Below the pieces are notes generated by a model. That model saw nothing but the letters and a program-made list of their open reading frames with translations, was not told the origin of the DNA and did no database searches. Position numbers and translations under genes: made by a program. Shown here piece after piece: positions 1-64,000 of a stretch of DNA of 64,000 nt (position 1 is its first letter; the number at the start of each line of letters is the position of its first letter). Source of the DNA: Patescibacteria group bacterium (GTDB lineage: Bacteria > Patescibacteriota > Patescibacteriia > 2-01-FULL-39-33); the NCBI GenBank assembly GCA_041649575.1, contig JBAZMW010000001.1, forward strand, positions 154,711 through 218,710, read 5' to 3'.

Positions 1-2004
1 CGTGAAGCTGGAGTTGGTGGCTCCGCTTATTGCCACGCCGTCCTTCTTCCACTGATACGAGAGCGGCGTCGTGCCCGAGGCCACAACCGTGAACGTAACC
101 AGCGATCCAATACTGGCCGTCTGTGATACCGGTTGCGTGGTGATCGTCGGGGCGACCGCTGTCGATTCGATTGTCAGTGTAGCCACATTGGACGTTGCTG
201 TTCCAGCGGCGTTTTTCACGACACAGCGATAGGCGCCTTCGTTGATCGCACCTGCCGACAGAATAGTGAGCGCGGAGCTCTTCACACCTATCGAAGCGCT
301 GTTCTCTGCGATGTCAACGCCGTTCATCTGCCATTGGTATGACAGCGGCGCTGTGCCCGTAGCCGTGACACTGAAGGTGGCCGACGCACCCAGGTCCACA
401 GTAAGCGAGTCTGGCTGTTTGGTGATCGTCGGGGCGACGGCTGTCGACGCTAGCGTCAGCGTTGCCACGTTCGACGTTGCTGTTCCAGCGGCGTTCTTCA
501 CGATACAGCGGTAGGCGCCAGCATTCACTGTGCCAACTGACAAGATTGTAAGAGTCGGACTCTTTATTCCCGTAGACGCGCTGTTCTCGGGAATGTCCAC
601 TCCGTTGTCTTGCCATTGGTATGACAGTGGCGCTGTGCCGGTGGCCGTGACACTGAAGATCGCCTGTTCGCCGACGTTTACCGTCAGTGAATCCGGCTGT
701 TTGGTGATCGCCGGGCTGATGGCTTCTCCTGCGGCCATGGCCACGTCGATTTTGTAGTAGCCGAGTCCTTGCCCGCTGGAGCCGGTCTCCTCGTGGAGTT
801 CGGTTCCGCCACTCACGCCGATGCCTTGCACTGTGCCGTTCTCGGCGGCATCGACCCGCCAGAGTTTGACCCAGTAGAAATGGTCGGAGTTCGGGTGTTT
901 GGCTGCGAGTCGTAGCTCGATCTGTTCGGCGCCGGCCATGTTCTGTTGCCAGACACCTTTGAGATTGATCACGGCCGGCGTACCATACTCCCAGTCGGGT
1001 GGTGGTACTGGCAGGATGATGCCGCCAGTATCGTTCGGGTACGCGCAAACCATCGCGCAGAGTCCGCTCGGAGACTGGTCATCGGGCCATCCGATGAAGC
1101 AGTTCCTCAGATCCCAGTGGTGTACATCGCAGTACACCGAGAGTTCGTCGCTGGTGTTGACGACGTTCAAGGTGACAATCGCGCTGTCGTCTTGCCAGGG
1201 GATTTCGCCCTCTCCTTCGCCTTCGCCTTCTCCTTCTCCGGCGTGATGGTTGGGATGGTCGTCCGGATTCAGTGGGTCGGTACCGGCATTGATTTCTTCG
1301 CGGTCCGTGTAGCCGTCTCCATCCGTGTCGGATCCGTACTGACCATACGGCAGGGTACCATAGAAGCATTCCTGCCAGTTGGGTACGCCATCGCTGTCCG
1401 GATCGCCTAGGGACCCGTTTTCGCCCGCCGGATCGTGCGGATCCAGCGAGTTTAGTGACTCCCAGAAATTGGGCATGCCGTCGCCGTCGGTATCGTCCAG
1501 TTCCGGAGCTTGCCGCCGGATGAAGATCGTGATCACAGAGTCGTGTCCGTTTAGTTTAACGGATAGGTCGACTCTGATCGACTTCGCCGCCGGGCTTGGT
1601 GGTACCGTTACCTCCCACTGCGTGCCGTCTCCTTCGATGTGGGGCGGGTCACTGGGAACACCAAATGGTTTACCCACCTCATTGAGATAGAGTCCATCGG
1701 TGATGCCACTGGCTTTGCCGCAGTCAAGCGGGAAGTCGACCCACTGGCCTTGCATTTCGGGCAGGGAAATCTCATACGAAACCGTCCCGCCCCTGGCGCA
1801 GTCGAAGTGGGCGCCGTCGATCTTGATCTTGGCCCCGTGTGAAATAACCACTCCAGGGTTGGCAACCTCGACAATTCCGATTTGCTGTCCGGTCTCGCCG
1901 AAGGTCGTCACCAGGATCGACATCTCTCTTTTTTCGGGGCATCCTACGAACAGAAGCCCCATGGCCAACGTAACTGCCACGCACATACTCACTCTCGTCT
2001 TCAT
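1..2004 (-). CDS. Secreted/lipoprotein-like surface protein (partial; C-terminus runs off the left edge). N-terminal domain has DxDxDG TSP3-like Ca-binding repeats, followed by at least three tandem Ig-like (I-set type) domains.
   Basis: I translated the reverse complement by hand from ATG 2004..2002 with no stops to position 1. It reads MKTRVSMCVAVTLAMGLLFVGC (signal peptide), then DTDGDGMPNFW / DPDSDGVPNW / DTDGDGYTD repeats and a GEGEGEGE run. Three ~90-aa repeats (VAPTITKQPDSLTV...TGTAPLSYQWQ.NGVDI...AYRC.VKNAAGTATS) show up in the DNA as ~270-bp tandem repeats. RBS AAAGGAGGcaacATG. About 60% GC. The provided ORF track omits it because no stop falls in the window. Confidence 0.75.
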   Translation of the reverse strand, partial: MKTRVSMCVAVTLAMGLLFVGCPEKREMSILVTTFGETGQQIGIVEVANPGVVISHGAKIKIDGAHFDCARGGTVSYEISLPEMQGQWVDFPLDCGKASGITDGLYLNEVGKPFGVPSDPPHIEGDGTQWEVTVPPSPAAKSIRVDLSVKLNGHDSVITIFIRRQAPELDDTDGDGMPNFWESLNSLDPHDPAGENGSLGDPDSDGVPNWQECFYGTLPYGQYGSDTDGDGYTDREEINAGTDPLNPDDHPNHHAGEGEGEGEGEGEIPWQDDSAIVTLNVVNTSDELSVYCDVHHWDLRNCFIGWPDDQSPSGLCAMVCAYPNDTGGIILPVPPPDWEYGTPAVINLKGVWQQNMAGAEQIELRLAAKHPNSDHFYWVKLWRVDAAENGTVQGIGVSGGTELHEETGSSGQGLGYYKIDVAMAAGEAISPAITKQPDSLTVNVGEQAIFSVTATGTAPLSYQWQDNGVDIPENSASTGIKSPTLTILSVGTVNAGAYRCIVKNAAGTATSNVATLTLASTAVAPTITKQPDSLTVDLGASATFSVTATGTAPLSYQWQMNGVDIAENSASIGVKSSALTILSAGAINEGAYRCVVKNAAGTATSNVATLTIESTAVAPTITTQPVSQTASIGSLVTFTVVASGTTPLSYQWKKDGVAISGATNSSFT

Positions 2005-2097
2005 GTTGCCTCCTTTGCCCTTGAGGGCTGTCTGTGTTGGTCGCCCTCGGGGCAACCGTCTTCACTATGTGACACTCCATTACAACACTCTTACTTG

Positions 2098-2118
2098 CAA
2101 ACGAACAACGCGGTTGTT
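2098..2118. promoter_or_regulatory. Perfect 9-bp inverted repeat (ACGAACAAC-gcg-GTTGTTCGT) upstream of the Ig-like gene; possible operator
   Basis: Palindrome read directly, about 95 bp upstream of the minus-strand start at 2004. Confidence 0.3.
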
Positions 2119-2264
2119 CGTTTTCCTTCTTTGTTTCAAAGGACTGCCGACCACGAGTTCCATGGTCGCTTAAACTGGCCTAAGTCAAAAGAAAGACCGA
2201 CCAAGTTTAATATATTATTTTAGCAAGATTATATTTTTTTGTCAAGATCTAAAAAATTTTTTAA

Positions 2265-2291
2265 AAATAAAAACAAAAAATTCTGATTATC
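2265..2291. terminator. Perfect palindrome AAAAAATTCTGA-tta-TCAGAATTTTTT, bidirectional terminator-like
   Basis: A-run/hairpin/T-run between the GC-rich 5' island and the host minus-strand operon. Confidence 0.4.
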
Positions 2292-2318
2292 AGAATTTTT
2301 TGTTTAAATTTAGATAAA

Positions 2319-3611: not shown

Positions 3612-5738
3612 TTAATTCGCGGCATATTCAAAATTATTATTTTTTTCGATAAAGCTGGTGGTAAAAACATTGGTGGTTAGCGCCAGTATTTCGGCCTGGC
3701 CATCACTGTCAATGTCGCTCGCCAGCGGCTTGACGCCTTCGCGTTTTTGCGGATTGTAGGCCAGCCAAGAATTTAACAACCTGCCTTGCTGATTGAAAAT
3801 TTTTATCTCCGGGCTACCGCCGAATCCAGGACCGGTGATGATCTCGTCTTGGCCGTCGCCGTTAACATCGCCGCAAGCGACATTGACGCCGCCGGCAAAT
3901 TTTTTATCGTAAGCGAAGAAACCCATTGACAATAGTTTACCACGATTATCAAAGATTTTCACATGAGGCCCGCCAGGACTGGAGGCGCCAACAACAATTT
4001 CGCTCTGGCCGTCGCCGTTAACATCGCCAGCAGCTACATTAACTCCCATTTTAGTCCAAGCTTTATTATAGGCATAAAAGCTGGTTGGTTTTGTTTTCCC
4101 TTGCCAGTTGAAAATTTTGACCAAATTAGCGCCGCCGGTTTCCGGGCCAGTGATAATCTCTTGCCAGCCATCATTATCCAAATCGGCGACGGCCAGAGAT
4201 AGGCCGCCGGCAAACTTAGAGCCATAAGGATAAAATTCGGCAATATTCTCTTGAGCGCTGTTATAAATTGTTATTTTATTTTTGGCGGCTACCAAAAATT
4301 CTTTTTGACCGTCATTATTCAAATCGGTTTTGCTGATTTTATTGCCTCCCAGAAACAGTGAAACATAAGCAAAGAAGCCATTTCTCACGGTGTGTCCATA
4401 AGCATTAAAAGGTCTGGCAAAAGAACCATTAGCAAAAACGCCATCTTCGATTTCCGCTAGCGGTCTCAAAAGAATGACGCCATCGCCGGCTTCCAGCGAT
4501 AGTTTATCAAGACGCGAGCCATTGTTTATTTCTGGGTCTTGGATGCCGTGTATTTTCTCGTATTCCGAGTCAAAGCTGACGGTTTGTTTTTTGTCGGTTG
4601 AATTTACAATAGCCACGCCGTTGGCAAAATCTCTTTGCCACAAGCCGGGCTGGAGATTATTGTTCGAAGTCAGGAGGTTTTTAGGAGAGGATTTGGCCGG
4701 ACCTAAGTTGACGTCATATTCGTCGTACCACCAAAAGTGCTCTCTTAGCTGGGTTCCAAAATTAAAACCATAATAGCCATTATAGAGCAGAGCACTGGCC
4801 AGTCCAAAGCGCATCAACTGGTAATTGGTACGATTGCCGGTATTATCGGTGTCAACGTTGATAATATTTAGACGCGGCAGATAGCCAGAATTATTGGTAT
4901 CGCGGTAGCGTTTCATCGAGCCATCCCAGCCACCTTCCCAATATTCGGGAAAACCTTCAAACATCCGGCCATTAAGATCCAAGTATGGGCCGTCGCCATT
5001 GCCGACAATCAGATATTTATCGCCAAATTTGTTTCTTAGATTTTTAAACAGATTTTTATAACCTTCTTGCCAAAGACGATCGATTTTTTCGGCGGAATCC
5101 AGATAACCGTCAGCGTCAATATCGATGCGCGAATTAACCCAGGAGACGTTTTGCCAGACATTGTCGAGCAGCAAGCCGTCCCAAAGGCCGGTGGCCAGCA
5201 CTTTATTCTGATAGAAGTCGGCTAAATAATCGGCATAAGACTTTCCGAGCCGGTTTTTGACATAAAGATTCATGGAAATATTGCCCGGCCAGAAAGAGAT
5301 ATTTTCTCCAGCCACGGTTTTCAATTGCCAGCGGGGGTCGCTCTCCTTGGCCAAGGTGTGCCACAGGCCAGCGCCTTGCGGCTCAACCACTGATAGCCTT
5401 TCGAGCGGGATTTCGTTGGCGGAAGTATAGGCCAAAATAACAATCCTGGGGTTTAGTTTCCTGATTAGTTTGATTTCTTGCTGACTAGTGCTTTGAGCCT
5501 GCATATCCAGAGCCAACAGATCATAAGCAGCCAGCTTAACAGCCTCTTCTTGAGTGATTGGAGTTTTCCAATATAAATTGACGGTACGAGGAAAGTTATA
5601 ACTAAGCAAATCGACAGCTAAAAGCGACTTAAGCGGCAGAAGAATGGCGCTGAAAAAAGCCGCTAAAATCAAACTGCCGGCCAGAATTTTTTGCCAAAGC
5701 TTTATTTGCAAGTTGGTTTTGGGAAACAAAACAAACAT
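3612..5738 (-). CDS. Membrane-anchored protein with a glycoside-hydrolase-like (TIM-barrel GHL-type) central domain and C-terminal FG-GAP/VCBS repeats
   Basis: N-terminal TM segment. C-terminal repeats DLDNDGWQEIITGPETGG..KIF, GDVNGDGQSEIVVGASSPGGPHVKIF and GDVNGDGQDEIITGPGFGGSPEIKIF are typical FG-GAP. The GH-like assignment for the middle domain is weaker. Confidence 0.55.
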   Translation of the reverse strand: MFVLFPKTNLQIKLWQKILAGSLILAAFFSAILLPLKSLLAVDLLSYNFPRTVNLYWKTPITQEEAVKLAAYDLLALDMQAQSTSQQEIKLIRKLNPRIVILAYTSANEIPLERLSVVEPQGAGLWHTLAKESDPRWQLKTVAGENISFWPGNISMNLYVKNRLGKSYADYLADFYQNKVLATGLWDGLLLDNVWQNVSWVNSRIDIDADGYLDSAEKIDRLWQEGYKNLFKNLRNKFGDKYLIVGNGDGPYLDLNGRMFEGFPEYWEGGWDGSMKRYRDTNNSGYLPRLNIINVDTDNTGNRTNYQLMRFGLASALLYNGYYGFNFGTQLREHFWWYDEYDVNLGPAKSSPKNLLTSNNNLQPGLWQRDFANGVAIVNSTDKKQTVSFDSEYEKIHGIQDPEINNGSRLDKLSLEAGDGVILLRPLAEIEDGVFANGSFARPFNAYGHTVRNGFFAYVSLFLGGNKISKTDLNNDGQKEFLVAAKNKITIYNSAQENIAEFYPYGSKFAGGLSLAVADLDNDGWQEIITGPETGGANLVKIFNWQGKTKPTSFYAYNKAWTKMGVNVAAGDVNGDGQSEIVVGASSPGGPHVKIFDNRGKLLSMGFFAYDKKFAGGVNVACGDVNGDGQDEIITGPGFGGSPEIKIFNQQGRLLNSWLAYNPQKREGVKPLASDIDSDGQAEILALTTNVFTTSFIEKNNNFEYAAN

Positions 5739-9233: not shown

Positions 9234-9395
9234 ATTTGTTTAAATTTGGCTATTTTTTATAATTGTTTATTAACATCATAGATTATCATATTTTTTATAA
9301 AATGTCAAACATAGCCCTGTTCGATGGCCCAACGCTATTAGACAATAAAGCCATAAGCGATTATAATATTTATATCCGGCGTTGCCAATAAAAAT

Positions 9396-10844: not shown

Positions 10845-10850
10845 TCTGGT

Positions 10851-11049
10851 CGCTTTTCTTTTCTAGAAAAGAAAAGCGCACGCAAAAGAAAAGTCGCGAG
10901 CTAACATGAAAAATTTTGCGTTTCAGACAAAATTCTAACAAAATTTTTAAATTCCCCGCTCAGGCGCTGACGCGCTGAGCGGGTCAAACAGTAAAAATTT
11001 AGTAACGAATTTTGCCTTCACTTTTTTCAAAATTTTTCATAGGCTCGCA
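10851..11049. mobile_element. MITE-like dispersed repeat, copy 1. A 28-bp perfect palindrome CGCTTTTCTTTTCTAGAAAAGAAAAGCG (10851-10878) is followed by a ~155-bp element with imperfect terminal inverted repeats (GCGAGCTAACATGAAAAATTTT ... AAAATTTTTCATAGGCTCGC).
   Basis: About 75-80% identical to 61235..61413. Copy 1 carries an extra internal hairpin (CCGCTCAGGCGCTGACGCGCTGAGCGG). Confidence 0.55.
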
Positions 11050-11074
11050 TTGGGTAACTATCAAAAACAATTGT

Positions 11075-12205: not shown

Positions 12206-13611
12206 AAAATAAAAAAGTGACAGTCATGGGGCTGGGTTTATATGAAAATGGTAGCGGAATTTCGGCTACCCGTTTTTTGGTGGAGCAGGGCGCTCGGGTG
12301 ACAGTGACCGATTTAAAGACCAGGGAACAACTGACTGATCAGGTAAAGCGACTGGGGTCGTTGGCTAGGAAAATAAAATTTGTTTTAGGTGAACATCGAG
12401 AGGAGGATTTTAAAAATATTGATTTACTTGTAAAAAATCCAGGCGTGCCCAACATTTCAAAATATTTGCGAATCGCTCGAGAAAATAAGATTCCCATTGA
12501 GACGGATATCTCTTTGTTTTTTAAGCTGGTGCCGCGAGAAAGAATTATTGGCATCACCGGCACGCGCGGTAAAAGCACCACCACCAGTTTGATCTATGAA
12601 ATAGTAAAACTGGCCGACAAAAACGCGGTTTTGGGCGGCAATATCACCAAGTCGCCGCTGGCGCAGATGATGGAAGTAAAAAAGGGAGGCATGGTAGTGC
12701 TGGAGTTGTCTTCTTGGATGCTGGAAAGCTTAGAACCGCACAAAATGAGTCCGCAGCTGGCCATTTTTACCAATATTTACCCAGATCATTTAAATACTTA
12801 CAAAAATATTGCCGAGTACGCGGCAGCCAAAGAAAATATTTTCCAGTGGCAGAACAAAGATGATTTAGTGGTGCTAAACCGCGATAATAGCTGGACCAGA
12901 AAAATGGGCGCTAAAGTTCCAGGCAAAAGGTTTTGGTTTTCCAAAAAATATTTTGCGGCAGAAAACGGAGTTTATTTGAAAGGAAAAGATGTCTATTTTC
13001 GGCTCGCTGGCGAGGAAATAAAAGTCTTAAAAAAAGATGACATTCAAATTCTCGGTGAACATAATTTGGAAAATGTTTTGGCGGCGGTAGCCGCCGCTAT
13101 GGCCTGGGGAATCAGGCCGGAAACTGTCAGGCGAGGTGTAAAAAGCTTCAAAGGCATTAGCGATCGGCTGGAATTTTTGAGAGAAATAAAAGGGGTAAAA
13201 TATTATAATGATACCACCTCGACCACGCCAGAAGCGACGATGGCGGCCCTAAGGGCCTTAAGTTTAAAACCAAAAAGTAAAAGCTTAAAAGAAAAAAATA
13301 TTATTTTGATAGGTGGAGGGTCGGATAAAGGGTTGAATTTTAAAGAATTGGCCAGGGAGATAAGAGATAGAGTAAAAAATTTAGTTTTATTAAGGGGAAG
13401 TGGCAGTGAAAGACTGGCTAAAGAATTTTTAGCTTTAAGTTTTAAGTTTTCAGTTGTTGGCTCTATGGCTGATGCGGTTGGTTTGGCTAAAAGTTTTGCC
13501 AAGAGGGGAGATATTGTTTTGCTTTCTCCCGCCTGCGCTTCTTTTGGCATGTTTAATAATGAGCTTGATCGTGGCGCGCAGTTTAGGATGATAGTTAGGA
13601 AGTTAAAGTGA
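12175..13611 (+). CDS. murD: UDP-N-acetylmuramoylalanine--D-glutamate ligase MurD
   Basis: KKVTVMGLGL N-terminus, P-loop GITGTRGKSTTTSLIYEI, Mur ligase C-terminal region. Confidence 0.85.
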   Translation: MVEKRKDIYLKNKKVTVMGLGLYENGSGISATRFLVEQGARVTVTDLKTREQLTDQVKRLGSLARKIKFVLGEHREEDFKNIDLLVKNPGVPNISKYLRIARENKIPIETDISLFFKLVPRERIIGITGTRGKSTTTSLIYEIVKLADKNAVLGGNITKSPLAQMMEVKKGGMVVLELSSWMLESLEPHKMSPQLAIFTNIYPDHLNTYKNIAEYAAAKENIFQWQNKDDLVVLNRDNSWTRKMGAKVPGKRFWFSKKYFAAENGVYLKGKDVYFRLAGEEIKVLKKDDIQILGEHNLENVLAAVAAAMAWGIRPETVRRGVKSFKGISDRLEFLREIKGVKYYNDTTSTTPEATMAALRALSLKPKSKSLKEKNIILIGGGSDKGLNFKELAREIRDRVKNLVLLRGSGSERLAKEFLALSFKFSVVGSMADAVGLAKSFAKRGDIVLLSPACASFGMFNNELDRGAQFRMIVRKLK

Positions 13612-13712: not shown

Positions 13713-13736
13713 AAAAAAATACGGCGGCGAGGACAC

Positions 13737-14100
13737 TTGCGTATCACTCGCCGCGCTCTAGGTCACGGACTGCGTTCACGATTGACCCCACGGACATGGG
13801 ATCGTGCTCCTGGGGGGCCGTCCCACAAAGCACGGCGGTTACCGGGGGCCGCGCGTCGCGTCCGCGACTGCACAGAGGCCTTTATGGAAGGCCCGGCGTC
13901 CGCGGTCTACGTCCGCAGGACGTGTCGCCGGTGCCCGTCGATGGCCGCGCCCGTCGCGCTTGTGCTCGGAAACAGATTCGAATTCGATATGGACAATGCG
14001 AGATGGGTGCCTTTTCGGTGCTGAATGTGCATAGTGCGTGTTCCTCCTTGTTTGTTCCATTGAACCTCTTCCAGATTGAAACTATGTAAGGCCATATTAG
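13737..14100. other. GC-rich (about 65%) structured ~360-bp islet of unknown nature between murD and ftsW; candidate ncRNA or foreign remnant. Best ORF candidate is a 41-aa minus-strand ORF (14032..13907) with SD AAGGAGG.
   Basis: Many stable hairpins (GCGGCGAG..CTCGCCGC; GGCCTTtatggAAGGCC; GTCGCGtccGCGAC). Every longer ORF is Arg-rich, i.e. non-coding-like. Confidence 0.3.
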
Positions 14101-14224
14101 CATATTAGTAAATTTTTGTCAATAATTAATTAAATAAAAAAATAAAAAATATTAATTTTTTGTTTAAATTTAGACAAAAATAATTGTTCGAAAATTATTA
14201 AAATAAATAGCCAAAGATCAAATC

Positions 14225-23716: not shown

Positions 23717-23793
23717 CTTTGACAAAAAGCAGCTGTCATAATACAATGTCATTTTAGGAGCGTGGTACTTTCAACAACAAGGAGGATCTGGCC

Positions 23794-24162
23794 ATGTTAC
23801 TGGACTGCGGGGCTTATCTCGAATTACCGGGCAATCTTCAGCGTGAGCTGGCTAGGCCACTGGCCGAGCTCAATCAGGAGCTCGGAAATCTCTGGCAGCG
23901 AGTAGGCGCCCTGGAAGAAGGACAAGGGGACTACCGAGCACTCGCCCAGGAAGTCTTTGAACAGCTTCTGGCCGAGGTCAAGATGTGGGTCAGAGGCATC
24001 GCCGCGCGGGAAGTATTGGACAGCGGCAGGCAGGCCGAACTTGCCAGGGCAGCCCGCAACTTCCAACTGCGGGTGATCGAGGCGGTTTATACTCTGGGGA
24101 TAGAGTTTTCCTCTACCGTGCTGGTGGAAGAACCATCGGCGGCAGCAGCGGTTGTCGGCTGA
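23794..24162 (+). CDS. GC-rich islet ORF, 122-aa predicted alpha-helical protein of unknown function
   Basis: SD cAAGGAGGatctggccATG; about 58% GC against the ~38% host; followed by a rho-independent terminator. Confidence 0.5.
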   Translation: MLLDCGAYLELPGNLQRELARPLAELNQELGNLWQRVGALEEGQGDYRALAQEVFEQLLAEVKMWVRGIAAREVLDSGRQAELARAARNFQLRVIEAVYTLGIEFSSTVLVEEPSAAAAVVG

Positions 24163-24194
24163 AAAGGTTTCGCCTTGAAGTTCTGGTGGCACAA

Positions 24195-24236
24195 GAGCTG
24201 CTCCAACGGCTTGGAGCAGCTTTTTCTTTTGTTTTT
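24195..24236 (+). terminator. Rho-independent terminator (GAGCTGCTCCAAcggcTTGGAGCAGC + TTTTTCTTTTGTTTTT)
   Basis: Perfect 12-bp stem followed by a T-tract. Confidence 0.7.
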
Positions 24237-25142: not shown

Positions 25143-25209
25143 GACAACTCTCTCCTTTGGTTCAAGGAGAGAGCATGTGTACGATTGTTCGCTTGGCGCC
25201 TCGGGCTGG

Positions 25210-25632
25210 CTAGGCGGCCGGTGTTTTAACAGTTCTTAATGCTTCTAGATGCGTCCGGCATTGCTCGGCGAGCTTCTGGGCGGTTTCATACATTCTCATA
25301 TCGGCCGCATGTTCCGCCTCATCTTCCTGTCTGGCTTGCGCGACCATTTCATCGGAGACTCTGGCTTTTGCTTCAGCGATTTTCTCCGCGTCGCCGGTCG
25401 TCAGTTCTTCTATCTCGCCCGCCAAAGTCCTGGGGTTGATATAAGCCAGTTGTGGCTTTGTCATGCCCTCAAGCTCTTTGATCAGGTCTTCCAGAAGAAC
25501 CATTGAGACCCTGTCGATGATGGTTTCCGGGGTGTCTCCCTCTCGCAGGTTGATGTGGGCGTCACCGGGAGCGCCAACGCCCCCTACGCCCACATTAATT
25601 GAGCTGATTGTCCGCGCGCTGTCGTCTGGCAT
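25210..25632 (-). CDS. GC-rich islet ORF, 140-aa acidic helical protein of unknown function
   Basis: SD AAGGAGGGttacttATG on the minus strand; about 56% GC. Hairpin CTCTCTCCTTTggttcAAGGAGAGAG at 25149-25174, between the fpg stop and this gene's 3' end. Confidence 0.45.
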   Translation of the reverse strand: MPDDSARTISSINVGVGGVGAPGDAHINLREGDTPETIIDRVSMVLLEDLIKELEGMTKPQLAYINPRTLAGEIEELTTGDAEKIAEAKARVSDEMVAQARQEDEAEHAADMRMYETAQKLAEQCRTHLEALRTVKTPAA

Positions 25633-25729
25633 AAGTAACCCTCCTTTCCAAGGACTAGCTATTTTATATCAGTTAACCGGCAAAAAAGCAAACACCCTGA
25701 TAAACGGGTGCTTGTTGGTTTGATGGAGA

Positions 25730-42265: not shown

Positions 42266-42277
42266 ATAAAATTTTTA

Positions 42278-42325
42278 GACAAATTTAATACCGGAAAGTC
42301 GCTGGCGCAACCTTCCAGTATAGTG
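42278..42325. repeat. Direct repeat copy 1 (TTTAGACAAATTTAATACCGGARRGTCGCTKGCGCAACCYYCCRGTAT), hairpin-containing, immediately 3' of the minus-strand 122-aa gene
   Basis: Differs from 42782..42829 at 5 positions. Contains inverted TACCGG..CCGGTA arms and a TTGCGCAA palindrome. Confidence 0.7.
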
Positions 42326-42348
42326 TTTACCGTGCATTATAATCCAGC

Positions 42349-42717
42349 TCACTCTACTTGAGCATTGATTTCTGCTGTAATGCCGGAGTACAACTTGTGG
42401 CGTTCCGGCCCCACGATAAATGAGAGAGCGACAAACCCCAGTACAGTTTTATTATGTTTGTATCGAATGTTCCGGCAAAGCCTTTTCATGATGCCATGTA
42501 AGTACACTGGGTGAGAGCGAATCAAGGCACGGCGAGTGCGTGGGTCCTGCCATTCTTTCAACACCTCCCATGCTTTTTGTTCGTCGTATTTTTGACTTTC
42601 TTGTAATGCCTGGCGTAATTCGTCCGCATAGTCGCGGCGAAAGTTGTCGATCTCTGCGATCGACAAGACTATTGGCACCCCATCATCCATTTCCCCGTTT
42701 CCACTTTCCGTTCCCAT
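42349..42717 (-). CDS. GC-rich island gene 1, 122-aa hypothetical protein
   Basis: SD AGGAGGGatcgtcATG; about 57% GC; no recognisable motif. Confidence 0.55.
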   Translation of the reverse strand: MGTESGNGEMDDGVPIVLSIAEIDNFRRDYADELRQALQESQKYDEQKAWEVLKEWQDPRTRRALIRSHPVYLHGIMKRLCRNIRYKHNKTVLGFVALSFIVGPERHKLYSGITAEINAQVE

Positions 42718-42781
42718 GACGATCCCTCCTGTTGTAGGTACTGTTTTTAGTCTATCAGATGGTTTTAAAATAGTAAAATTT

Positions 42782-42829
42782 ATATTTAGACAAATTTAAT
42801 ACCGGAGGGTCGCTTGCGCAACCTCCCGG
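42782..42829. repeat. Direct repeat copy 2, immediately 3' of the minus-strand 475-aa gene
   Basis: See copy 1. Preceded on the gene side by a second small hairpin ATCGCCgtcaGGCGAT. Confidence 0.7.
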
Positions 42830-42858
42830 TATGTTGATGTACGATCGCCTGACGGCGA

Positions 42859-44286
42859 TTAGTTGAGAGCGACTGCCTCCTGCCTGCCCTCGGTGCTCAG
42901 GACCACATGGTCCTCCTCGAGCCTTAGCACGGCGATGGCGGCGCTGCCCGCGCTCTCATAGGCGTGGTTCTCGTAGATCAGCCGCGGCTCCTGGCCCGGC
43001 ACCATGACATAGAGCTCATAGCGTAGTTGCGGGTCGGCGATGCGGTGATCGATCTGCTCCTCGGCCACGAAGACCGCCAGGCCCAGTCGCGCGCTTATGA
43101 TCCTGTGCCGTACCGACGGCGTGCGGTAGGACACTTGGCCGGGAGTCCCCATCGGCATCTGTATGACTACGCCGTACTTCTGATCCCCGTAGTCTTGGTA
43201 CATCTTTGGCTTCAGGCGCCAAGATGCCATCTTTTGCGCCAGGATCTGGGCGATCGCCGCGTCCACCTCGCCCTCAAAGGCGGCCTGCTCGGTCTCGTTG
43301 AGCTTGGGCGGACTCGGAGTCGCTTCAGTCGGCTCGAAGACAAACTCGGCGATGCGGTTGCCGTACTCCTCGTTGACGAGTTCGACGGTGATTTTCACCT
43401 GGCCGCCCCTTTCGTCAATTTGGATTTGCCCCAGGTCGTTGATGCACAAATCGTGCCGGTCGGCGCTACTGCTGTAGCGGTTGCGCCACTGCCATTCTTG
43501 CATCTGGTCTCGGCCGTGGTGGTAGATCACCACTTGATCGAAGTAGCCGATGCCGCCACTGCCACCCCACTCGCTTCGGGCTACCAGAAACACGGCCGTG
43601 TCGGGATCGAGCACCCTGACCTTCCCGATACTGCACCGCTCCATCTTCATCAACTCCTCAATGAACAACCGGAGCCGTGCCGACACTTCTTGCCCGCCGA
43701 GTACCTCGGCCAATGCCTCCTCATGACTCAACCGCGAGTCATCCTCCAGCAATGCTTTGACGCTGGCGGCGGCTTCGGCCAGCTCTTCCCGCTTCTGCTG
43801 GATTTGGCTGGCAAACTCTTCGCCACCGAGAAGAGCCAGCGCTTGGTGTGCGTCGGAGTAGGATTGCCGCCCGATCTCGTAAGTTTCCCGCGGGAAGTTG
43901 TCGGGGGGGAGCTCTTGTACCAAACTCCTGATGCCCAACTCATCGGTCAGGGCCAGGAACTTTTCCGTGAGCTTTCTTTCACAGCAACCACAACCATTCA
44001 TGGTCGGGTCGATTGCACTGAAGGCCTCGGCGATCGCCAGCCGGACCAGGGGATCGGGCTGGGCATTGATGGCCTTGACGATCCGCCCCCGTTCCTCGGC
44101 CGGCAATTCGCGGAGGCGTTGCACATACTTCCCGCCGCGCTGGCCATCGGCCATGGTCACAGGGATGCCGGTGACCTGCTGGGCAACTTGTAGGCAGACA
44201 GACAATTCCAACTGCCGCAGTTGTCGGCCAATCTCTTCCTCCACTTTCCGCGCTTCTTTCAGCGCTCTTTCTCTTTCCTTGTTCAT
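42859..44286 (-). CDS. GC-rich island gene 2, 475-aa hypothetical protein (no recognisable domain)
   Basis: SD GGAGGAGacaacaATG at 44286. The track's longer 509-aa version overlaps the upstream gene. Coiled-coil-like N-terminus (MNKERERALKEARKVEEEIGRQLRQL), a CGCC cluster, C-terminal beta-rich half. The antisense 388-aa ORF is Arg/Gly-rich and rejected. Confidence 0.6.
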   Translation of the reverse strand: MNKERERALKEARKVEEEIGRQLRQLELSVCLQVAQQVTGIPVTMADGQRGGKYVQRLRELPAEERGRIVKAINAQPDPLVRLAIAEAFSAIDPTMNGCGCCERKLTEKFLALTDELGIRSLVQELPPDNFPRETYEIGRQSYSDAHQALALLGGEEFASQIQQKREELAEAAASVKALLEDDSRLSHEEALAEVLGGQEVSARLRLFIEELMKMERCSIGKVRVLDPDTAVFLVARSEWGGSGGIGYFDQVVIYHHGRDQMQEWQWRNRYSSSADRHDLCINDLGQIQIDERGGQVKITVELVNEEYGNRIAEFVFEPTEATPSPPKLNETEQAAFEGEVDAAIAQILAQKMASWRLKPKMYQDYGDQKYGVVIQMPMGTPGQVSYRTPSVRHRIISARLGLAVFVAEEQIDHRIADPQLRYELYVMVPGQEPRLIYENHAYESAGSAAIAVLRLEEDHVVLSTEGRQEAVALN

Positions 44287-50037: not shown

Positions 50038-50098
50038 ATTAAATTGTGATATATCAAATATTGCTAGGGAGCGTCTAACTTGGGAAGGAGGAAACACC

Positions 50099-50359
50099 AT
50101 GATTACGACCGTGACCCTGACAAAGCCTTTACAGGTGGCGGATTTTTCCGGCAGTGACTGGAAGTTTCGGACTCTGCCACAAGGAGAGTACCAGGTGGAG
50201 GATGTGGCCAATCCCTTGGGTCTGGCAGGCGAAGACGATCATTGGCTGGTGCTGGCAGGCACCCAGGAAGGCATGAGAGAAAGCGTCTGGCGACGGCACT
50301 GCTGCAGGGGGCAGAAGCGGAGCTGGCTAAAGACTTTGCCAGAGCCGTGTCCGGCGTAG
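50099..50359 (+). CDS. GC-rich islet ORF, 86-aa hypothetical protein
   Basis: SD GGAAGGAGGaaacaccATG; about 56% GC; followed by an imperfect hairpin and T-run at 50375-50428. Confidence 0.45.
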   Translation: MITTVTLTKPLQVADFSGSDWKFRTLPQGEYQVEDVANPLGLAGEDDHWLVLAGTQEGMRESVWRRHCCRGQKRSWLKTLPEPCPA

Positions 50360-50434
50360 GACTCGTGGAGGACTAGTATTAGAGACGGCCGTTTAACCGA
50401 GGCAACCGGTTAGACGGCTCGATTTTTATCTAAG

Positions 50435-55400: not shown

Positions 55401-56229
55401 GACGGCCCGAAGCGTGCGGGACAGCGGTTTCAGCTTTTGTCCCAGCCCGGATATCAATGTTGATTATGATGGTTACCTGAATTTATTAAACAACCCTCGT
55501 TTCAAGAGCGCTAGCGACCCCCAGGGCTTATTAGTCAGCGGTACGATTAATAAAAATGGCACAGTTAAATTTGACCCGTTTGTCTATTTGCCAGAAACCT
55601 TTCTTGATTTAGAACCAAATAGTGGGGGTGACTACCAGTTTGTTTTACTCGATGAAAACAAAAAGGAATTAAGCAAGTCGGGTTTTGATGTTTATTTTTA
55701 TCAGTATGATCCCGGTGGCGGGCCGCTGGAGGAGACTTCTTTTGCCTACCGGATTGAGTGGAAGGAAGGAACTAGCTTGATAGAATTACGCAACAAAGCC
55801 GGTCAGGTTTTGGCTAGCCGGCAGGTATCAAAGAACAAGCCGGAAATCGAAGTGGTTTATCCCAACGGCGGTGAGGTTTTTAAGATTGGCAAAAAAATAG
55901 AGCTTAATTGGCAAGCGAGCGATGCCGACGGCGACGAATTGTTTTATTCTTTGGCCGTAAGCTCGGATGGCGGCAAAAGTTGGCTACCCGTGGACATGGA
56001 TTTGAAAACGACAAGCTATGAACTTAATACCGCCGCTTTAAGGCCGGGCGATTATCTACTTAAAGTCAAGGCCAGTGACGGTGTAAATACATCACAGGAT
56101 GTTTCTGACAAGACTTTTGAAGTTAAGGCTGTAAAAAAAATCAAAAATTTGTATTTTTTGGCTTGGGGCGTGGCGATGCTGATTTTATTGGGGATTTTAT
56201 GGAAGAAAAAGTTTGTCCGAAAGAAATAG
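52402..56229 (+). CDS. Giant surface protein (1275 aa) with signal peptide, TSP3-type Ca-binding repeats, a CARDB-like region, a putative zinc-metalloprotease HExxH site (HEFNH), Cys-rich modules and a C-terminal TM anchor
   Basis: DSDQDGVYDESDNCPSAYNPNQEDIDGDKIGDACD repeats; ALLAHEFNHVV; C-terminal LAWGVAMLILLGILWKKK. Confidence 0.7.
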   Translation: MKKGKLIFVGLALFFCLIGIYKLVLAQTSCYFKGPETSPDLLRLSSLDISGNGNLLVGDTVTVGFNLQNYGQSDIKLGSKGIFAAGFDPSSSDASFGFSYANAILKPGQTVSFKASRVLDKEGVWTIWPSYQIVSGKTEKLGPDNWRACPLSVAAAQKDSDQDGVYDESDNCPSAYNPNQEDIDGDKIGDACDGCDDRDWDQDKIKNCSDKCPDQPEIFNQYQDEDGCPDEKPQETKDSDQDGVDDSKDNCPNAYNPDQKDGNSNNQGDACEQRTDGQDLPEENKESPVSLVTGLPAETAGNVNLNINASRVPTEEISVPCDLSGTIWNFKYLSKTLKVRICEAERIGGGCLPTPPFTCTGGAVSCKEGGASWLENVSRVWTGEEAYRNPGPLSYRARVGCGSSYLITPSYEPFEQECQWQGRFSPTRSNFVNMSGTSQTGYDFNFTANELTPPSVNMISDDVRRPATFKGEGNFKVLVNAFDASGIKNIKITGSYTVKYFSADETGPLETGRGDETVTVDRSCSISPCDVFLPYYAGGKQISFDLHISACDNNGNKIETTYNHVFPDNSGDLVVAATDPVQVIYDAPLVKNKNTAFRIKVNSTFPYPTEAKFRLDLPPDKWSMTSRSGSYLLGFTPGWRYKDLWGPIKIPANARNHEIMLPIIADWQKELDYDSTADREGKVLRGREVSGVWGLDVRLLPIPAADRVNYSVSIDPENQISETNERNNIINSVEYSTAKTKAWRFLFIPYRDGSGGGMCAPTEGMRQGGAKRQLEYVLATFPIAENKIEYGFSYTNFSLGCGGDPDGQCEYARAFNVSRGEFLRWMARLALDEGYDFGVAIGCGGGGGAGGSDKAVFIGADGNEALLAHEFNHVVSPVSDVYSRDCYSSWNESYCEKPDGQRFYCCWQDYNDEKDRRESNGVDPMEGCTVDCGQNETSGCDGACCHARCQPGCAAAGGVNYYAPDLRIDLPATNGFWANEWQKKESKQYFMDGPRGDNWMTARSVRDSGFSFCPSPDINVDYDGYLNLLNNPRFKSASDPQGLLVSGTINKNGTVKFDPFVYLPETFLDLEPNSGGDYQFVLLDENKKELSKSGFDVYFYQYDPGGGPLEETSFAYRIEWKEGTSLIELRNKAGQVLASRQVSKNKPEIEVVYPNGGEVFKIGKKIELNWQASDADGDELFYSLAVSSDGGKSWLPVDMDLKTTSYELNTAALRPGDYLLKVKASDGVNTSQDVSDKTFEVKAVKKIKNLYFLAWGVAMLILLGILWKKKFVRKK

Positions 56230-59915: not shown

Positions 59916-59983
59916 AAAGGAGCGGGATGGAGGCGGCAGCCTGCCTGCCGGCAGGCAGGTTTGATTCGGTCTAGATCCAATTG

Positions 59984-61020: not shown

Positions 61021-61234
61021 TTCTTATGAAAAATCATGCTAAAGTCGGCGGGCGCAAAGGTCTGCCGGGATACCGGACACCTTCGAGCTTTAGGTTTCGT
61101 AAAGACTTAGCAGTAAAAAGCTTGAAAGCTTTTAAAAGGGTTAAATAGTTGTCAGGAGGCACAGAGTTTGTTATACTAGTCCCTAGCCGACCAAAGCACG
61201 GTGATTTTTGCGTATATTTGCGTATATAAGTTAT

Positions 61235-61413
61235 TTTTTCTTTTCTAGGAAAAGAAAAAGCTAACAAAAAGAAAAGTCGCGAGCTAGATGAAAATTTGGC
61301 GCTTCAAGTCAAAATCCTAACAAAATTTTATAACTCCTCGCTTCGCTCGTCAAACAGATGAAACTTAGTAACGAATTTTGACTTACGCTTATCCCAAATT
61401 TTCATAGGCTCGC
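61235..61413. mobile_element. MITE-like dispersed repeat, copy 2 (palindrome TTTTTCTTTTCTAGGAAAAGAAAAAG, then a TIR-bounded element GCGAGCTAGATGAAAATTT...AAATTTTCATAGGCTCGC)
   Basis: Aligns with 10851..11049 at about 75-80% identity and lacks that copy's internal hairpin. Confidence 0.55.
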
Positions 61414-61437
61414 AAAATAAGAAAACAATTTTTAATA

Positions 61438-63276
61438 ATGTCAGGAAAATTATTTAAATTAAAATCTAAATTTGCCCCAGCGGGCGATCAGCCTCAAGCG
61501 ATTGAGAAGCTTTGGCATGGCCTTGAGAAAGGGGATGCTTTTCAAACGCTGCTGGGCGTTACGGGGTCAGGCAAAACTTTTACCATGGCCAATTTGATAG
61601 CCCGACTAGATCGTCCAGTACTAGTGATGGCGCCGAACAAGGCTTTGGCGGCCCAGCTTTATCGCGAGTATAAAAATTTTTTTCCGGAAAACAGTGTTAA
61701 TTATTTTGTGTCTTACTATGATTATTATCAGCCGGAAGCGTACCTGCCGACGACTGATACTTATATCGACAAAGAAGCGATGATTAATGAAGAGATAGAT
61801 CGTTTGCGGCACCAGGCCACTTCGGCTTTGTTGTCGCGACGGGATGTGATCGTGGTGGCCTCGGTTTCCTGTATTTACAACCTGGGTCTGCCGGAAAGCT
61901 ATTTGGAGTCGCGTCTGCATTTGACGGTCGGCCAGCCGATTGTTCGCGCCGATCTGATTCGCCAACTGGTCAAAATCCAGTTTACCCGGACTCCTGGTGA
62001 GCTGAAACGCGGGACTTTTAGGGTGCGCGGTGATGTTTTTGAGATTATGCCGGCAGCGGCGCAGGTGGTTTACAGAGTAGAATTAGCGGAGCAAAAAATA
62101 AAAGAAATTCACATTATCAATCAATTGACAAGAAAAAGATTGGCAAGTTTGTTCGAGCTTGTTGTTTTTCCGCCCAAACACTTTGTTTCTTCCAAGCCGG
62201 AAATCGAAAGAGCCATTAAAGATATTAAATTAGAATTGAAAGACAGATTGAAATACTTTAATAAAAAAAATTTATATTTGGAGACGGAGCGACTAGAGCG
62301 GCGCACTCGTTATGATATGGAAATGTTGAAAAGTATCGGTTATTGCCATGGCATCGAGAATTATTCGCGTCATTTGACTGGCAAACTGTCGGGTGAAGCG
62401 CCGGAGACATTACTAGCCTATTTTCCTAAAGATAAGAAAGGCCAGCCAGACTTTTTGACTATTATGGATGAATCACATATCGGCTTACCGCAAGTGCGAG
62501 GCATGTACGCTGGCGATCGAAGTAGAAAAGAAGTTTTAGCGCAGTATGGTTGGCGATTGCCCTCCGCTTTGGATAATCGGCCACTGACTTTTGACGAGTT
62601 TTTGCGGCGTATTGGCCAAACTATTTTTACTTCAGCGACTCCGGGTGATTGGGAAATTAAGCATTCGACTCAAGTGGCGGAGCAGGTGATTCGGCCGACC
62701 GGACTAATTGATCCGCCAGTAGAGGTAAGGCCGGTTTTTGACAAAAAGAATAATTACAGTCAGGTTGATGATGTGATTAAAGAAGCTAGAAAAATAGTAA
62801 AGCAGGGTGAGCGGGCGATTATTAATACTTTAACTAAGAAGCAAGCTGAGGATTTGGATAATTATTTGCGCGGCAAGGGAATCAAATCCGATTACTTGCA
62901 CAGCGACATTAATACGATCCAGCGCACCGAAATTCTAATGAATTTCCGCAAAGGCAGGTTCGATGTTTTAATCGGCGTCAATTTGCTCCGGGAAGGCCTG
63001 GATTTGCCGGAAGTGACTTTAGTGGCTATTTTGGATGCGGATAGGGAAGGATTTTTGCGCAGCGAGGTATCGCTAATGCAAACCATGGGTCGGGCGGCCA
63101 GAAATGTCACCGGCAAGGTAATTTTGTATGCTGATAATCTGACCGGTTCGATTAGAAGGGCGATAAAAGAGGTAGCCAGAAGGCGTAAATTACAAATGGA
63201 ATACAACAAGCAACACGGCATTCGGCCGGAGACAATTATCAAAGAGATTGAAAATTTTTTGGATATTGAAAATTAA
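61438..63276 (+). CDS. uvrB: Excinuclease ABC subunit B UvrB (short form, 612 aa)
   Basis: GVTGSGKTF Walker A, beta-hairpin region YYDYYQPEAY, helicase motifs, VLIGVNLLREGLDLPEV. The C-terminal UVR domain appears to be absent. Confidence 0.9.
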   Translation: MSGKLFKLKSKFAPAGDQPQAIEKLWHGLEKGDAFQTLLGVTGSGKTFTMANLIARLDRPVLVMAPNKALAAQLYREYKNFFPENSVNYFVSYYDYYQPEAYLPTTDTYIDKEAMINEEIDRLRHQATSALLSRRDVIVVASVSCIYNLGLPESYLESRLHLTVGQPIVRADLIRQLVKIQFTRTPGELKRGTFRVRGDVFEIMPAAAQVVYRVELAEQKIKEIHIINQLTRKRLASLFELVVFPPKHFVSSKPEIERAIKDIKLELKDRLKYFNKKNLYLETERLERRTRYDMEMLKSIGYCHGIENYSRHLTGKLSGEAPETLLAYFPKDKKGQPDFLTIMDESHIGLPQVRGMYAGDRSRKEVLAQYGWRLPSALDNRPLTFDEFLRRIGQTIFTSATPGDWEIKHSTQVAEQVIRPTGLIDPPVEVRPVFDKKNNYSQVDDVIKEARKIVKQGERAIINTLTKKQAEDLDNYLRGKGIKSDYLHSDINTIQRTEILMNFRKGRFDVLIGVNLLREGLDLPEVTLVAILDADREGFLRSEVSLMQTMGRAARNVTGKVILYADNLTGSIRRAIKEVARRRKLQMEYNKQHGIRPETIIKEIENFLDIEN

Positions 63277-63583
63277 AACCCGCAGGCTGGAGTGCTTGCG
63301 GTGTTAGAGAACAGGGGGGGGGATGTGCTGCTAGCGGGTTAAGGTGCGCGGTGATCCGGAGGTGGGAGGGGGAACTTCGGGTGATTTGATTTGAAGCCCG
63401 AGGAGTCCGTGTTAGAAATGTGCTGGCCGACAACTTTGACCGCGTTGCCGACTTCCTGGTAACAGCCCAGGGCGAAGTTATGAGGAAGAAGAGGGGCGTT
63501 AGGGTTAGGATCAGTCCCAAAAACAGAGCCATCACGCAACCTTTGGGGGGAGGCCCTAGTGGCGTTTCATTGGTGTTTTCCAT
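63239..63583 (-). CDS. GC-rich tail-region ORF, possible small membrane protein (TM helix VMALFLGLILTLTPLFFLITSPW). The C-terminal two-thirds are low-complexity and overlap the uvrB 3' end, so probably only the first ~45 aa, if any, are real.
   Basis: SD AAGGAGActgatcATG; antisense to the 63420..63638 ORF. Confidence 0.25.
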   Translation of the reverse strand: MENTNETPLGPPPKGCVMALFLGLILTLTPLFFLITSPWAVTRKSATRSKLSASTFLTRTPRASNQITRSSPSHLRITAHLNPLAAHPPPCSLTPQALQPAGFNFQYPKNFQSL

Positions 63584-63638
63584 GATCAGTCTCCTTGTGG
63601 GGTTAATGTACGCATTGATAGTTAATTATATTGTTTAA
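63420..63638 (+). CDS. GC-rich tail-region ORF, 72-aa protein with a C-terminal TM helix
   Basis: SD GAGGAGtccgtgttagaaATG; ends directly before a strong terminator hairpin. It is mutually exclusive with the antisense ORF. Confidence 0.35.
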   Translation: MLADNFDRVADFLVTAQGEVMRKKRGVRVRISPKNRAITQPLGGGPSGVSLVFSMISLLVGLMYALIVNYIV

Positions 63639-63650
63639 TAGTAATTTGTC

Positions 63651-63712
63651 AATAAAAAAAAGAGTCCCCGAAAACCAGTCTTCCGCGAAGACCGGTTTTC
63701 GGGGGGTTTGTC
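63651..63712. terminator. Strong bidirectional terminator: A8 + CCCCGAAAACCaGTCTTccgcgAAGACcGGTTTTCGGGG + GGTTTG
   Basis: 16-bp stem with one mismatch. T-run on the minus strand (for gene 63921..63721), G/T-rich on the plus strand. Confidence 0.75.
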
Positions 63713-63720
63713 AACCTTGT

Positions 63721-63921
63721 CTAACTGACAAGAGCGAGCGGCTGAGCAACGGACGTACACTCATATGGATACGCCCAGCGCTTGCCAGCCAGGCCAGCAA
63801 AGTGAAGAGTCAGAAAGTCTCCTGGCTCGGCGACGACACTAGCTGTCTTGCCGTTAAGTTTGTTTCCTCCTTGAGCTGAATTGAAGATGACGGTTCTGTT
63901 CTGGCGATGTGTTTCACTCAC
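63721..63921 (-). CDS. GC-rich tail-region small ORF (66 aa, GTG start) of unknown function
   Basis: SD GAGGAGaaacagctGTG; terminated by the 63651-63712 hairpin; beta-rich sequence (VIFNSAQGGNKLNGKTASVVAEPGDFLTLHF). Confidence 0.4.
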   Translation of the reverse strand: MSETHRQNRTVIFNSAQGGNKLNGKTASVVAEPGDFLTLHFAGLAGKRWAYPYECTSVAQPLALVS

Positions 63922-64000
63922 AGCTGTTTCTCCTCATAGTTGTTGACAGAAAATGGAGCTTCTGTAGTGTATTACATAATAAGAATTTTGTCAAATATTA

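Follow-up and report, generated by a model that had tools for sequence, protein, structure and literature searches.

GC-rich cassettes led by Shine-Dalgarno sequences lie between core genes of a Parcubacteria chromosome

We analyzed a 64,000-nucleotide stretch of DNA from a Patescibacteria group bacterium (assembly GCA_041649575.1, contig JBAZMW010000001.1, positions 154,711 to 218,710), hereafter called the window, in which seven short segments rich in guanine and cytosine (GC), the islets, lie between core genes of a much less GC-rich backbone. Every open reading frame (ORF) of the islets is preceded by a strong Shine-Dalgarno (SD) sequence, whereas no backbone gene is. We think it fairly probable that the islets are moron-like accessory cassettes of foreign ancestry, which were gained or replaced by recombination at permissive intergenic hotspots.

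The seven segments lie at 1-2210 (57.7% GC), 13737-14100 (59.9%), 23750-24236 (56.3%), 25143-25700 (53.4%), 42266-44640 (56.1%), 50060-50430 (56.3%) and 63277-63960 (51.2%). Pooled, they contain 56.1% GC, compared with 43.8% in the other 56,951 bases, and of the 400-nt windows outside the segments (standard deviation, 4.8 points; maximum, 54.7%), 0 of 283 were at 55% GC or above. A first-pass annotation of this DNA had counted at least eight islets, although its own list held seven segments, and had put the islets at 55-65% GC and the backbone at 38-40%; the measured values are 51-60%, with one islet ORF (I5a) at just 48%, and about 44%. The contrast that it described was recovered in the sliding windows, while tetranucleotide composition differed only moderately, with z-score correlations that averaged 0.52 between islets and host and 0.66 within the host and had overlapping ranges. 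All islet boundaries fall in spacers or at gene 3' ends, as had been noted.

SD strength was taken as the duplex energy of the 20 nt before the start codon with the anti-SD sequence ACCUCCUUA in a hand-curated set of 48 backbone genes and 10 islet ORFs. The islet ORFs had a median energy of -11.1 kcal/mol (range, -7.9 to -12.1 kcal/mol), all 10 being at or below -7.9 kcal/mol. The backbone genes had a median of -0.6 kcal/mol and a best value of -5.9 kcal/mol. The earlier statement that islet ORFs have an SD and host genes lack one was thus borne out without exception, since a strong SD was found in 10/10 islet ORFs and 0/48 backbone genes reached -6 kcal/mol (Fisher p = 1.9e-11). The region from -30 to +30 around the start was also more structured in the islet genes than in the backbone genes (mean minimum free energies of -7.8 and -4.6 kcal/mol, respectively; p = 0.01), and islet starts were GC-richer. 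Leaders of the core genes are AT-rich, unstructured and free of SD. Because their start regions are GC-richer and more structured, and because host genes rely on AT-rich leaders, the cassettes would need an SD.

Codon usage of the islets and the backbone differed in kind, beyond mere degree. Among two-fold codons, the backbone favored those ending in T, even in genes with high GC at third codon positions (GC3) (TTT, 0.73-0.76), whereas the islets favored those ending in C (ATC, 0.73; GAC, 0.68). GC at the first, second and third codon positions was 0.49/0.35/0.50 in the backbone and 0.61/0.45/0.67 in the islets.

Most islets appear to be self-contained units in which a sigma-70-like promoter and a leader with an SD precede one to three ORFs with many C-ending codons and a GC-rich hairpin terminator follows, the promoters and terminators being predicted from consensus scans or from reading of the sequence. 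The top sites of the sigma-70-like scan in the scanned regions were islet promoters (44690-44662, 23719-23747 and 14122-14094), and the best hairpins of the terminator scan were islet terminators (24193-24224, 25174-25147 and 50387-50419). The islet promoters sit in AT-rich DNA that resembles host intergenic spacers. Since backbone genes also use promoters of the TTGACA/TATAAT type, for example upstream of rplJ, the islet promoters would be compatible with the host, and the contrast would lie in the leader and the ORF. Units of this kind are found in at least seven core-gene spacers of the window, a number that rises to at least nine for the contig as a whole, and 7 of the 10 islet ORFs are antisense to neighboring operons.

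The idea that the islets encode one undescribed system was not upheld, as they are independent units of one to three genes with unrelated proteins. When all SD-led ORFs over about 110 fetched loci were compared with one another, just the homologues of I5c and I5b were linked to islet ORFs of the window. The remark that no islet protein is recognizable proved wrong for I1, in which hidden Markov model (HMM) searches identified immunoglobulin (Ig) I-set domains and a bacterial TSP3 repeat; it stood for the rest, to which Pfam, PHROGs, PADLOC and NCBIfam assigned no family. The PADLOC defence models gave a single match, an insignificant one for I5a (E = 0.005). An origin of the GC-rich segments as RNA genes was considered and rejected: Rfam and ARAGORN found three tRNAs and an L10 leader in the window, none inside an islet.

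Islet 5, between cysS and dus, is encoded on the minus strand and contains a two-gene module, I5c-I5b, followed by the cassette I5a. Its predicted promoter (44690-44662) is a perfect TTGACA-17-TATAAT (12/12, with TG). I5c (44309-44605; 98 aa) has the SD GGAAAGGAG and a leader hairpin that shows compensatory changes relative to locus L087, which comes from another Patescibacteria species (44% GC). I5b (42859..44286; 475 aa; GC 0.61, GC3 0.76) has an N-terminal coiled coil and a CxCC motif, and its conserved, beta-rich C-terminal domain carries the motifs SRSEWGGSGGIGYFDQ, EWQWRDRY, EEQIDHR and DPQxRYELYV. For I5b, Pfam, PHROG, PADLOC and NCBIfam gave no match and structure searches no fold match. 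However, a full HMM search returned 242 clusters at 50% identity, and a word-indexed search returned four other relatives; the 242 clusters indicate that I5b represents a genuine uncharacterized family. An I5c homologue precedes the I5b homologue in L087, L106 and L107, and both genes are clearly constrained at the protein level.

In L087, homologues of I5c and I5b (72% and 57% identical) occupy the same dus-cysS site, and the promoter position, leader hairpin, SD, terminator and adjoining motif are kept as in the window. Since flanking core proteins of the window and L087 are 57-73% identical, the module (57-72%) is about as diverged as its neighbors. In L113/L114, whose Dus is 69% identical to that of the window, the same cysS terminator with its TTTAGACAAATTTAATACCGG motif and the same -35 box beside dus enclose an unrelated cargo, namely, a GC-rich, SD-led gene for a 195-aa lipoprotein (GC3 0.70) and a gene for a 129-aa membrane protein. 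The cargo of the window, L087 and L113 thus lies between the same terminator and motif and the same dus-side -35 box, and the unrelated cargo within the same edges in L113/L114 identifies the spacer as a slot with kept edges and exchangeable GC-rich contents. The I5a cassette (42266..42858) holds a 122-aa SD-led ORF (42349-42717; GC 0.48) between 88%-identical copies (42271-42321 and 42782-42832) of the cysS terminator hairpin and its TTTAGACAAATTTAATACCGG motif. This 51-nt direct repeat is a duplicated host terminator and not an element end.

Comparison with relatives supported the accessory status of several islets. Locus L005, whose Fpg is 75% identical to that of the window, keeps the order secA ... 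NUDIX-fpg-DUF212-uppP-yceG-AMMECR1-rplJ-rplL and lacks islets 3 and 4, its NUDIX-fpg spacer being 50 bp and its fpg-DUF212 spacer 94 bp. Both I5a and islet 6 are missing from L087 and L113, where the traG-dnaX spacer that holds islet 6 in the window measures 66 bp and 4 bp, respectively. In L115/L116, the spacers adjoining dus hold other small SD-led ORFs, which are not GC-rich. Among the annotated genes of four relatives (L087, L113, L115 and L116), 0/35 genes with a Pfam annotation and 11/19 genes without one are SD led (p = 8e-7), so the clade as a whole sets an SD-less core apart from SD-led accessory genes. This clade-level statement is based on those four relatives and on I5b loci defined by homology, and within the clade just some of the SD-led genes are GC-rich. 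When 80 fpg loci of Patescibacteria were scanned crudely, 13 contained GC-rich ORFs with an SD, and control motifs gave similar counts; we make no claim of phylum-wide generality.

The remaining islets differ in content. The I1 gene part (1..2004, minus strand; GC 0.59, GC3 0.69) is the 5' 668 codons of a gene for an 831-aa lipoprotein, whose signal peptide has a lipobox and which carries three Ig I-set domains and a bacterial TSP3 repeat. In the leader of this gene (2005..2245, minus strand), the SD AAGGAGG stands 6 nt from the ATG, and a promoter-like TTGACA-17-TAAAAT occupies 2245-2217. The gene is the first of a GC-rich island of about 5.5 kb that runs about 3.4 kb to the left beyond the window start and holds three separately promoted genes for secreted Ig-type proteins. 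The leaders of genes 2 and 3 of this island (L085:14088-14390 and L085:15531-15770) contain repeated TTGTCCAC/GTGGACAA inverted motifs, which may be operator sites.

Islet 2 (13715..14122, minus strand), within the dcw cluster, has a promoter-like site at 14122-14094 (10/12, TG extended), an SD at about 14040-14046 and just a 41-aa SD-led ORF (13907-14032), outside the range of 66-475 aa that had been given for the islet proteins. Past this ORF follow about 190 nt at 65% GC without a long ORF and then a hairpin and T-run terminator at about 13719-13757; the coding status of islet 2 is uncertain. The last ~100 nt of murD are tandemly duplicated (13528-13607 and 13630-13709; spacing of 102 nt, 80 nt aligned at 85% identity), and the second copy, which directly adjoins islet 2, retains the reading frame and most amino acids. 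Islet 3 (23719..24224, plus strand) consists of a promoter-like site at 23719-23747 (11/12), the SD AAGGAGG, a 122-aa ORF (23794-24162; GC 0.59) and a terminator with a 14-bp stem at 24193-24224. Islet 4 (25147..25700, minus strand) has the SD GGAGGG, a 140-aa ORF (25210-25632; GC 0.55), a terminator at 25174-25147 and a putative weak promoter that was read by eye. Islet 6 (50060..50419, plus strand) begins 61 nt past the stop codon of the traG-like gene and showed no clear promoter of its own in the consensus scan; it has the SD GGAAGGAGG, an 86-aa ORF (50099-50359; GC 0.59, GC3 0.68) and a terminator with a 13-bp stem at 50387-50419.

Islet 7 (63277..63999, minus strand) takes up the whole spacer between uvrB and uvrA and has two SD-led ORFs, I7a (63239-63583; 114 aa) and I7b (63721-63921; 66 aa, GTG start), each with a predicted TTGACA-type promoter (about 63651-63623 and about 63994-63966, respectively) and with a hairpin at 63666-63704 between the two units. 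The real part of I7a is probably limited to an N-terminal membrane segment. To the right of the window on the same contig, two further SD-led units were seen on the minus strand, each with a TTGACA-type promoter: L112:15396-15584, between uvrA and uvrC (62 aa, GC 0.47), and L112:18857-19117, between genes of the Sua5 and PfkB families (86 aa, GC 0.57, GC3 0.69).

A search for donors by distant homology covered I5b and I1. The Ig part of I1 is 45-53% identical to Ig proteins labeled as Acidobacteria-type (Acidiferrales, Acidoferrum), Verrucomicrobia or Proteobacteria, and its N-terminal half had no relatives in the homologue search. None of the islets adjoins any of the three tRNA genes of the window, and direct repeats were found around I5a only. 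The proposal of repeated foreign acquisition survives in part: the cargo between core genes is accessory and looks foreign in composition and translation signal, but the data do not support recent import from a single high-GC source.

Several other explanations of the islets were weighed against their being moron-like cassettes. The source is a metagenome assembly and composition changes abruptly at each boundary, as would be expected if GC-rich community fragments had been joined into the contig by chimerism or contamination. Against this, host sequence lies no more than a few hundred bases from either junction of any islet. Contigs from ENA (MEGAHIT) and Logan are 100% identical to the window, or have one mismatch, over all junctions that they cover; among them are a 3,075-bp Logan contig that takes in cysS, islet 5 and dus and one of 10.8 kb that covers islets 3 and 4. 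The JGI and NCBI records place the same islet proteins on a contig of 244.9 kb, the islet promoters are set in host-like DNA, and the cysS-dus slot holds a GC-rich islet in two other species. The mis-assembly raised in the first-pass annotation is thus very improbable indeed. A reading of the islets as remnants of decayed prophages or integrative elements, with morons or cargo outliving the element, draws on an architecture that fits the definition of morons (own promoter and terminator, other GC, hotspots; PMC2920897), on small orphan proteins of a kind typical of the mobilome, on the 51-nt direct repeat flanking I5a and on the 102-nt duplication of the murD 3' end adjoining islet 2. However, the precomputed Pfam matches that the source has on record show no integrase, transposase or phage structural domain among genes over about 85 kb, the islets are flanked by core genes of the cell, the 51-nt repeat derives from the cysS terminator of the host, and the sole PHROG matches of the islet proteins are those of the I1 Ig domains. 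IMG/VR held no relatives of I5b and no close relatives of I3, I4, I5a or I6, and a tblastn search with I5b against GenBank phages and PLSDB plasmids came back empty. We regard such remnants as improbable. It is more improbable still that some islets are non-coding, in which case islet 2 and I7a would be transcribed into structured or non-coding RNA, or would be pseudogenes with frameshifts, in either case with a short leader peptide. The small ORF of islet 2 within a GC-rich transcript of about 370 nt would suit this, as would I7a, which was not called by the source annotation and lacks codon-position periodicity in GC (0.52/0.55/0.50). But the fold z-score of islet 2 is just -1.9 and Rfam gave no match for it even at E = 1, both loci have canonical SD and start geometry, and the proposal concerns at most 2-3 of the 10 ORFs, I5b and I5c being protein constrained.

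If the islets are moron-like cassettes, units of non-core, ultimately foreign origin would enter or be swapped at permissive core-gene spacers and be expressed independently of the neighboring genes. Because no integrase is present, we infer a route by DNA uptake and illegitimate or flank-homology-guided recombination. The source gene pool would use SD, and a GC-rich, structured start region would be translatable in this host only when it brings a strong SD; such a pool, together with such starts, could account for the perfect co-variation of GC and SD in this genome. The cargo would comprise secreted Ig/TSP3 lipoproteins, the I5c-I5b module and several small orphan proteins. Export is predicted from lipobox or signal peptides in the three left-island genes and in the L113 lipoprotein and from the membrane segment of I7a, and the Ig/TSP3 lipoproteins plausibly serve surface contact of an episymbiont.

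A number of observations weigh against this account. An old import should ameliorate, but the syntenic I5 module did not: its GC3 is still 0.62-0.76 in the window and L087, compared with about 0.5 in its neighbors, and its persistent GC richness is unexplained. Four-fold sites of the module are better kept between the window and L087 (identity of 0.57-0.64) than those of the flanks (0.35-0.47), in which no recombination tract was found; this suggests that either the module was exchanged later or selection acts on its synonymous sites. The I5b family was met only in low-GC contexts: at 21 metagenome loci with flanks of 0.37-0.50 GC, the gene is usually GC-richer, by up to 0.17, and usually SD led. 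In 8/9 genomes, the fraction of C-ending codons in the module is about 1.6-2.2 times that of its neighbors. This family pattern fits selective maintenance at least as well as import from a high-GC source. Nor are close donors seen: nine islet proteins, seven of them from window ORFs, each stand alone when about 15 billion proteins are grouped at 90% identity, the closest non-self relative of I5b (57% identical) comes from the same site of another low-GC Patescibacteria genome, and the closest outside relatives of I1 are about 50% identical in the Ig part only. The islet promoters, terminators and expression are all predicted. The SD-led genes of L115/L116 are not GC-rich, so SD and GC are separable and a translational filter cannot account for everything. 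A 16S rRNA 3' end for checking the anti-SD was found in none of the fetched loci, and about half of Parcubacteria have been reported to be without the anti-SD motif (PMC9297842).

The report on anti-SD loss adds interest to another explanation, that the islet genes are a native, selected class with two-tier translation. They would be long-resident, lineage-specific genes, whose SD and GC-rich, C-ending codons are held by selection; SD-dependent initiation would form a separate channel for accessory or symbiosis genes, and the promoter and terminator slots would be expression platforms. This is supported by the synteny of I5c-I5b in L087, with its promoter, leader hairpin, SD and terminator kept, by the better kept synonymous sites of the module, by the compositional signature of the I5b family in 8/9 genomes, by the SD of most of the 21 family members examined (30-57% identical), by the lack of a donor and by the clade-wide split between SD-led accessory and SD-less core genes. 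On the other hand, most islets are missing from the nearest relatives and the slot cargo differs by species, which is turnover and not conservation; the SD-led genes of L115/L116 do not share the GC richness, and the I1 Ig domains resemble those of other phyla. No mechanism known to us could explain how GC3 is kept 20-25 points higher than in the remaining genome. We consider a native class of this kind possible but not probable. A related and rather doubtful proposal is that the clade has two-channel initiation, with an SD-less core and turnover-prone SD-led cassettes, part of which have long been kept rich in GC and C-ending codons, in conserved slots.

Taken as accessory cassettes, the islets resemble phage morons, which are defined by their own promoter and terminator, a deviating GC content, a place between adjacent genes and hotspots (PMC2920897; Hendrix/Juhala concept). 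The islets likewise are autonomous units as far as promoters and terminators can be predicted (islet 6 lacking a clear promoter), separate genes that are immediate neighbors in relatives (islets 3 and 4 relative to L005; I5a and I6 relative to L087/L113), differ from their surroundings in GC (56.1% versus 43.8%) with opposite codon preference, and occupy hotspots where the units differ by genome, with cargo of mostly unassigned function. Unlike phage morons, they belong to the chromosome of a cell, where housekeeping genes flank them (murD/ftsW, fpg, cysS/dus, dnaX and uvrB/uvrA), they are GC-richer than their host whereas Burkholderia morons are GC-poorer than their phages (PMC2920897), and they differ from the host also in the translation-initiation signal. 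Acquired islands of Patescibacteria (PMC12455944) are also atypical accessory DNA with surface and hypothetical proteins in genomes of the candidate phyla radiation (CPR), and mostly are old transfers with few identifiable donors. The window islets, at 0.4-5.5 kb and with one to three genes each, are much smaller by comparison, as well as dispersed and without an integrase, and the searched passages of that paper have no mention of a contrast between SD-led cargo and an SD-less core.

Integron cassettes are also small, mostly single-ORF units of unassigned function, and the islets share with them swappable cargo beside a conserved promoter side and, at the I5a cassette, a hairpin-forming repeat on both sides. 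However, no IntI was found in the precomputed Pfam matches over about 85 kb, the islets are dispersed over at least seven spacers rather than arrayed, most have a promoter-like site of their own, and the I5a repeat is a host cysS terminator, kept in L087 and L113, and not attC. With classical genomic islands or integrative elements, the islets share atypical composition and variable presence among relatives, but they have no integrase and adjoin no tRNA genes. SD-independent initiation with rare SD-led genes is said to have been described in Bacteroidota by Baez et al. 2019 and Jha et al. 2021. Bacteroidota initiation and the anti-SD loss in Parcubacteria resemble the present case in an SD-less core, A/T-rich leaders and a small strong-SD minority, which here consists of atypical accessory genes and not of a regulated housekeeping gene such as rpsU. 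Moron-like islets at hotspots are known; what is added here is the clean SD dichotomy and an unexplained, lasting atypical composition.

The host, a tiny bacterium of the groundwater type, is an uncultured 'Ca. Buchananbacteria'-like Parcubacteria (CPR/Patescibacteria) metagenome-assembled genome (MAG). Its Fpg is 75-76% identical to those of two 'Candidatus Buchananbacteria' MAGs, the remaining relatives all being Patescibacteria, and the GenBank entry for the window proteins reads 'Patescibacteria group bacterium' (locus tags WC518_, 244,907-bp contig). The backbone is chromosomal DNA with the dcw cluster (mraZ, rsmH, PBP, murF, mraY, murD, ftsW, murG, murC and murB) and secA, fpg, uppP, rplJ-rplL with an L10 leader, cysS, dus, corA, dnaX, uvrB, a TraG/VirD4-like ATPase gene and three tRNA genes. 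The L10 leader (RF00557, 54 bits) lies upstream of rplJ at 29435-29574; rplK-rplA and rpoB-rpoC do not adjoin rplJ-rplL in the window or in L005, an arrangement that bears on the reported overlap in Parcubacteria of uL1-less and anti-SD-less lineages. The TraG/VirD4-like coupling ATPase (DUF8128, TrwB_AAD_bind) is encoded at 47470-50037 with no further type IV secretion genes nearby, and the order corA, a 171-189 aa ORF, traG-like gene and dnaX is kept in the window, L087, L113, L115 and L116. Three large surface proteins, a 1275-aa protein with 237-nt internal repeats and faint TSP3 matches (52402-56229) and two FG-GAP proteins (3612-5738 and 33778-35175), have backbone composition and no SD.

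The backbone also contains repeated sequences. The AT-rich near-palindrome TTTGTTTAAATTTAGACAAA occurs in spacers adjoining divergent promoters (2299-2318, 9235-9254, 14159-14178 and 44705-44724), with 9 matches at up to 3 mismatches where 3.2 were expected. It is kept beside dus in L113 and L087 and may be an operator or a promoter-associated site. We rejected it as an attachment site, as both TTTGTTTAAATTTAGACAAA and the hairpin motif beside cysS are host intergenic sequence kept in relatives and not element ends. An intergenic element of about 200 nt has two copies that are about 75% identical (10845-11074 and 61225-61437), each opening with the palindrome tttcttttctagaaaagaaaag just upstream of a plus-strand gene (the ORF at 11075 and uvrB, respectively); it may be a repeat that is regulatory or resembles a miniature inverted-repeat transposable element. 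Short GC-rich palindromic repeats lie at 45399-45485, in frame inside dus, and at 19181-19227, 44801-44844 and 59930-59981, with copies in spacers as well. Relative to a 69%-identical homologue, the window Dus contains three additional segments, one of 26 aa (residues ~210-237), one of about 9 aa (~155-163) and one of 7 aa (10-16), and those of 26 and 7 aa coincide with copies of the palindromic repeat.

CPR bacteria make up a large uncultured share of bacterial diversity, and little is understood about the ways in which they acquire accessory genes and express them. The division into SD-led and SD-less genes offers a simple sequence mark for finding the accessory or mobile gene pool of this clade, and it opens a test of whether, and for which genes, Parcubacteria ribosomes use SD recognition. 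The cysS-dus slot with its persistently GC-rich I5c-I5b module provides a test case for models of amelioration, the I5b family stands as an uncharacterized one without a recognizable fold, and the Ig/TSP3 lipoproteins may be candidate host-attachment factors. Should the clade indeed have two channels of initiation, SD recognition would be effectively reserved for accessory or symbiosis genes, and the atypical composition of those genes would be maintained rather than ameliorated.

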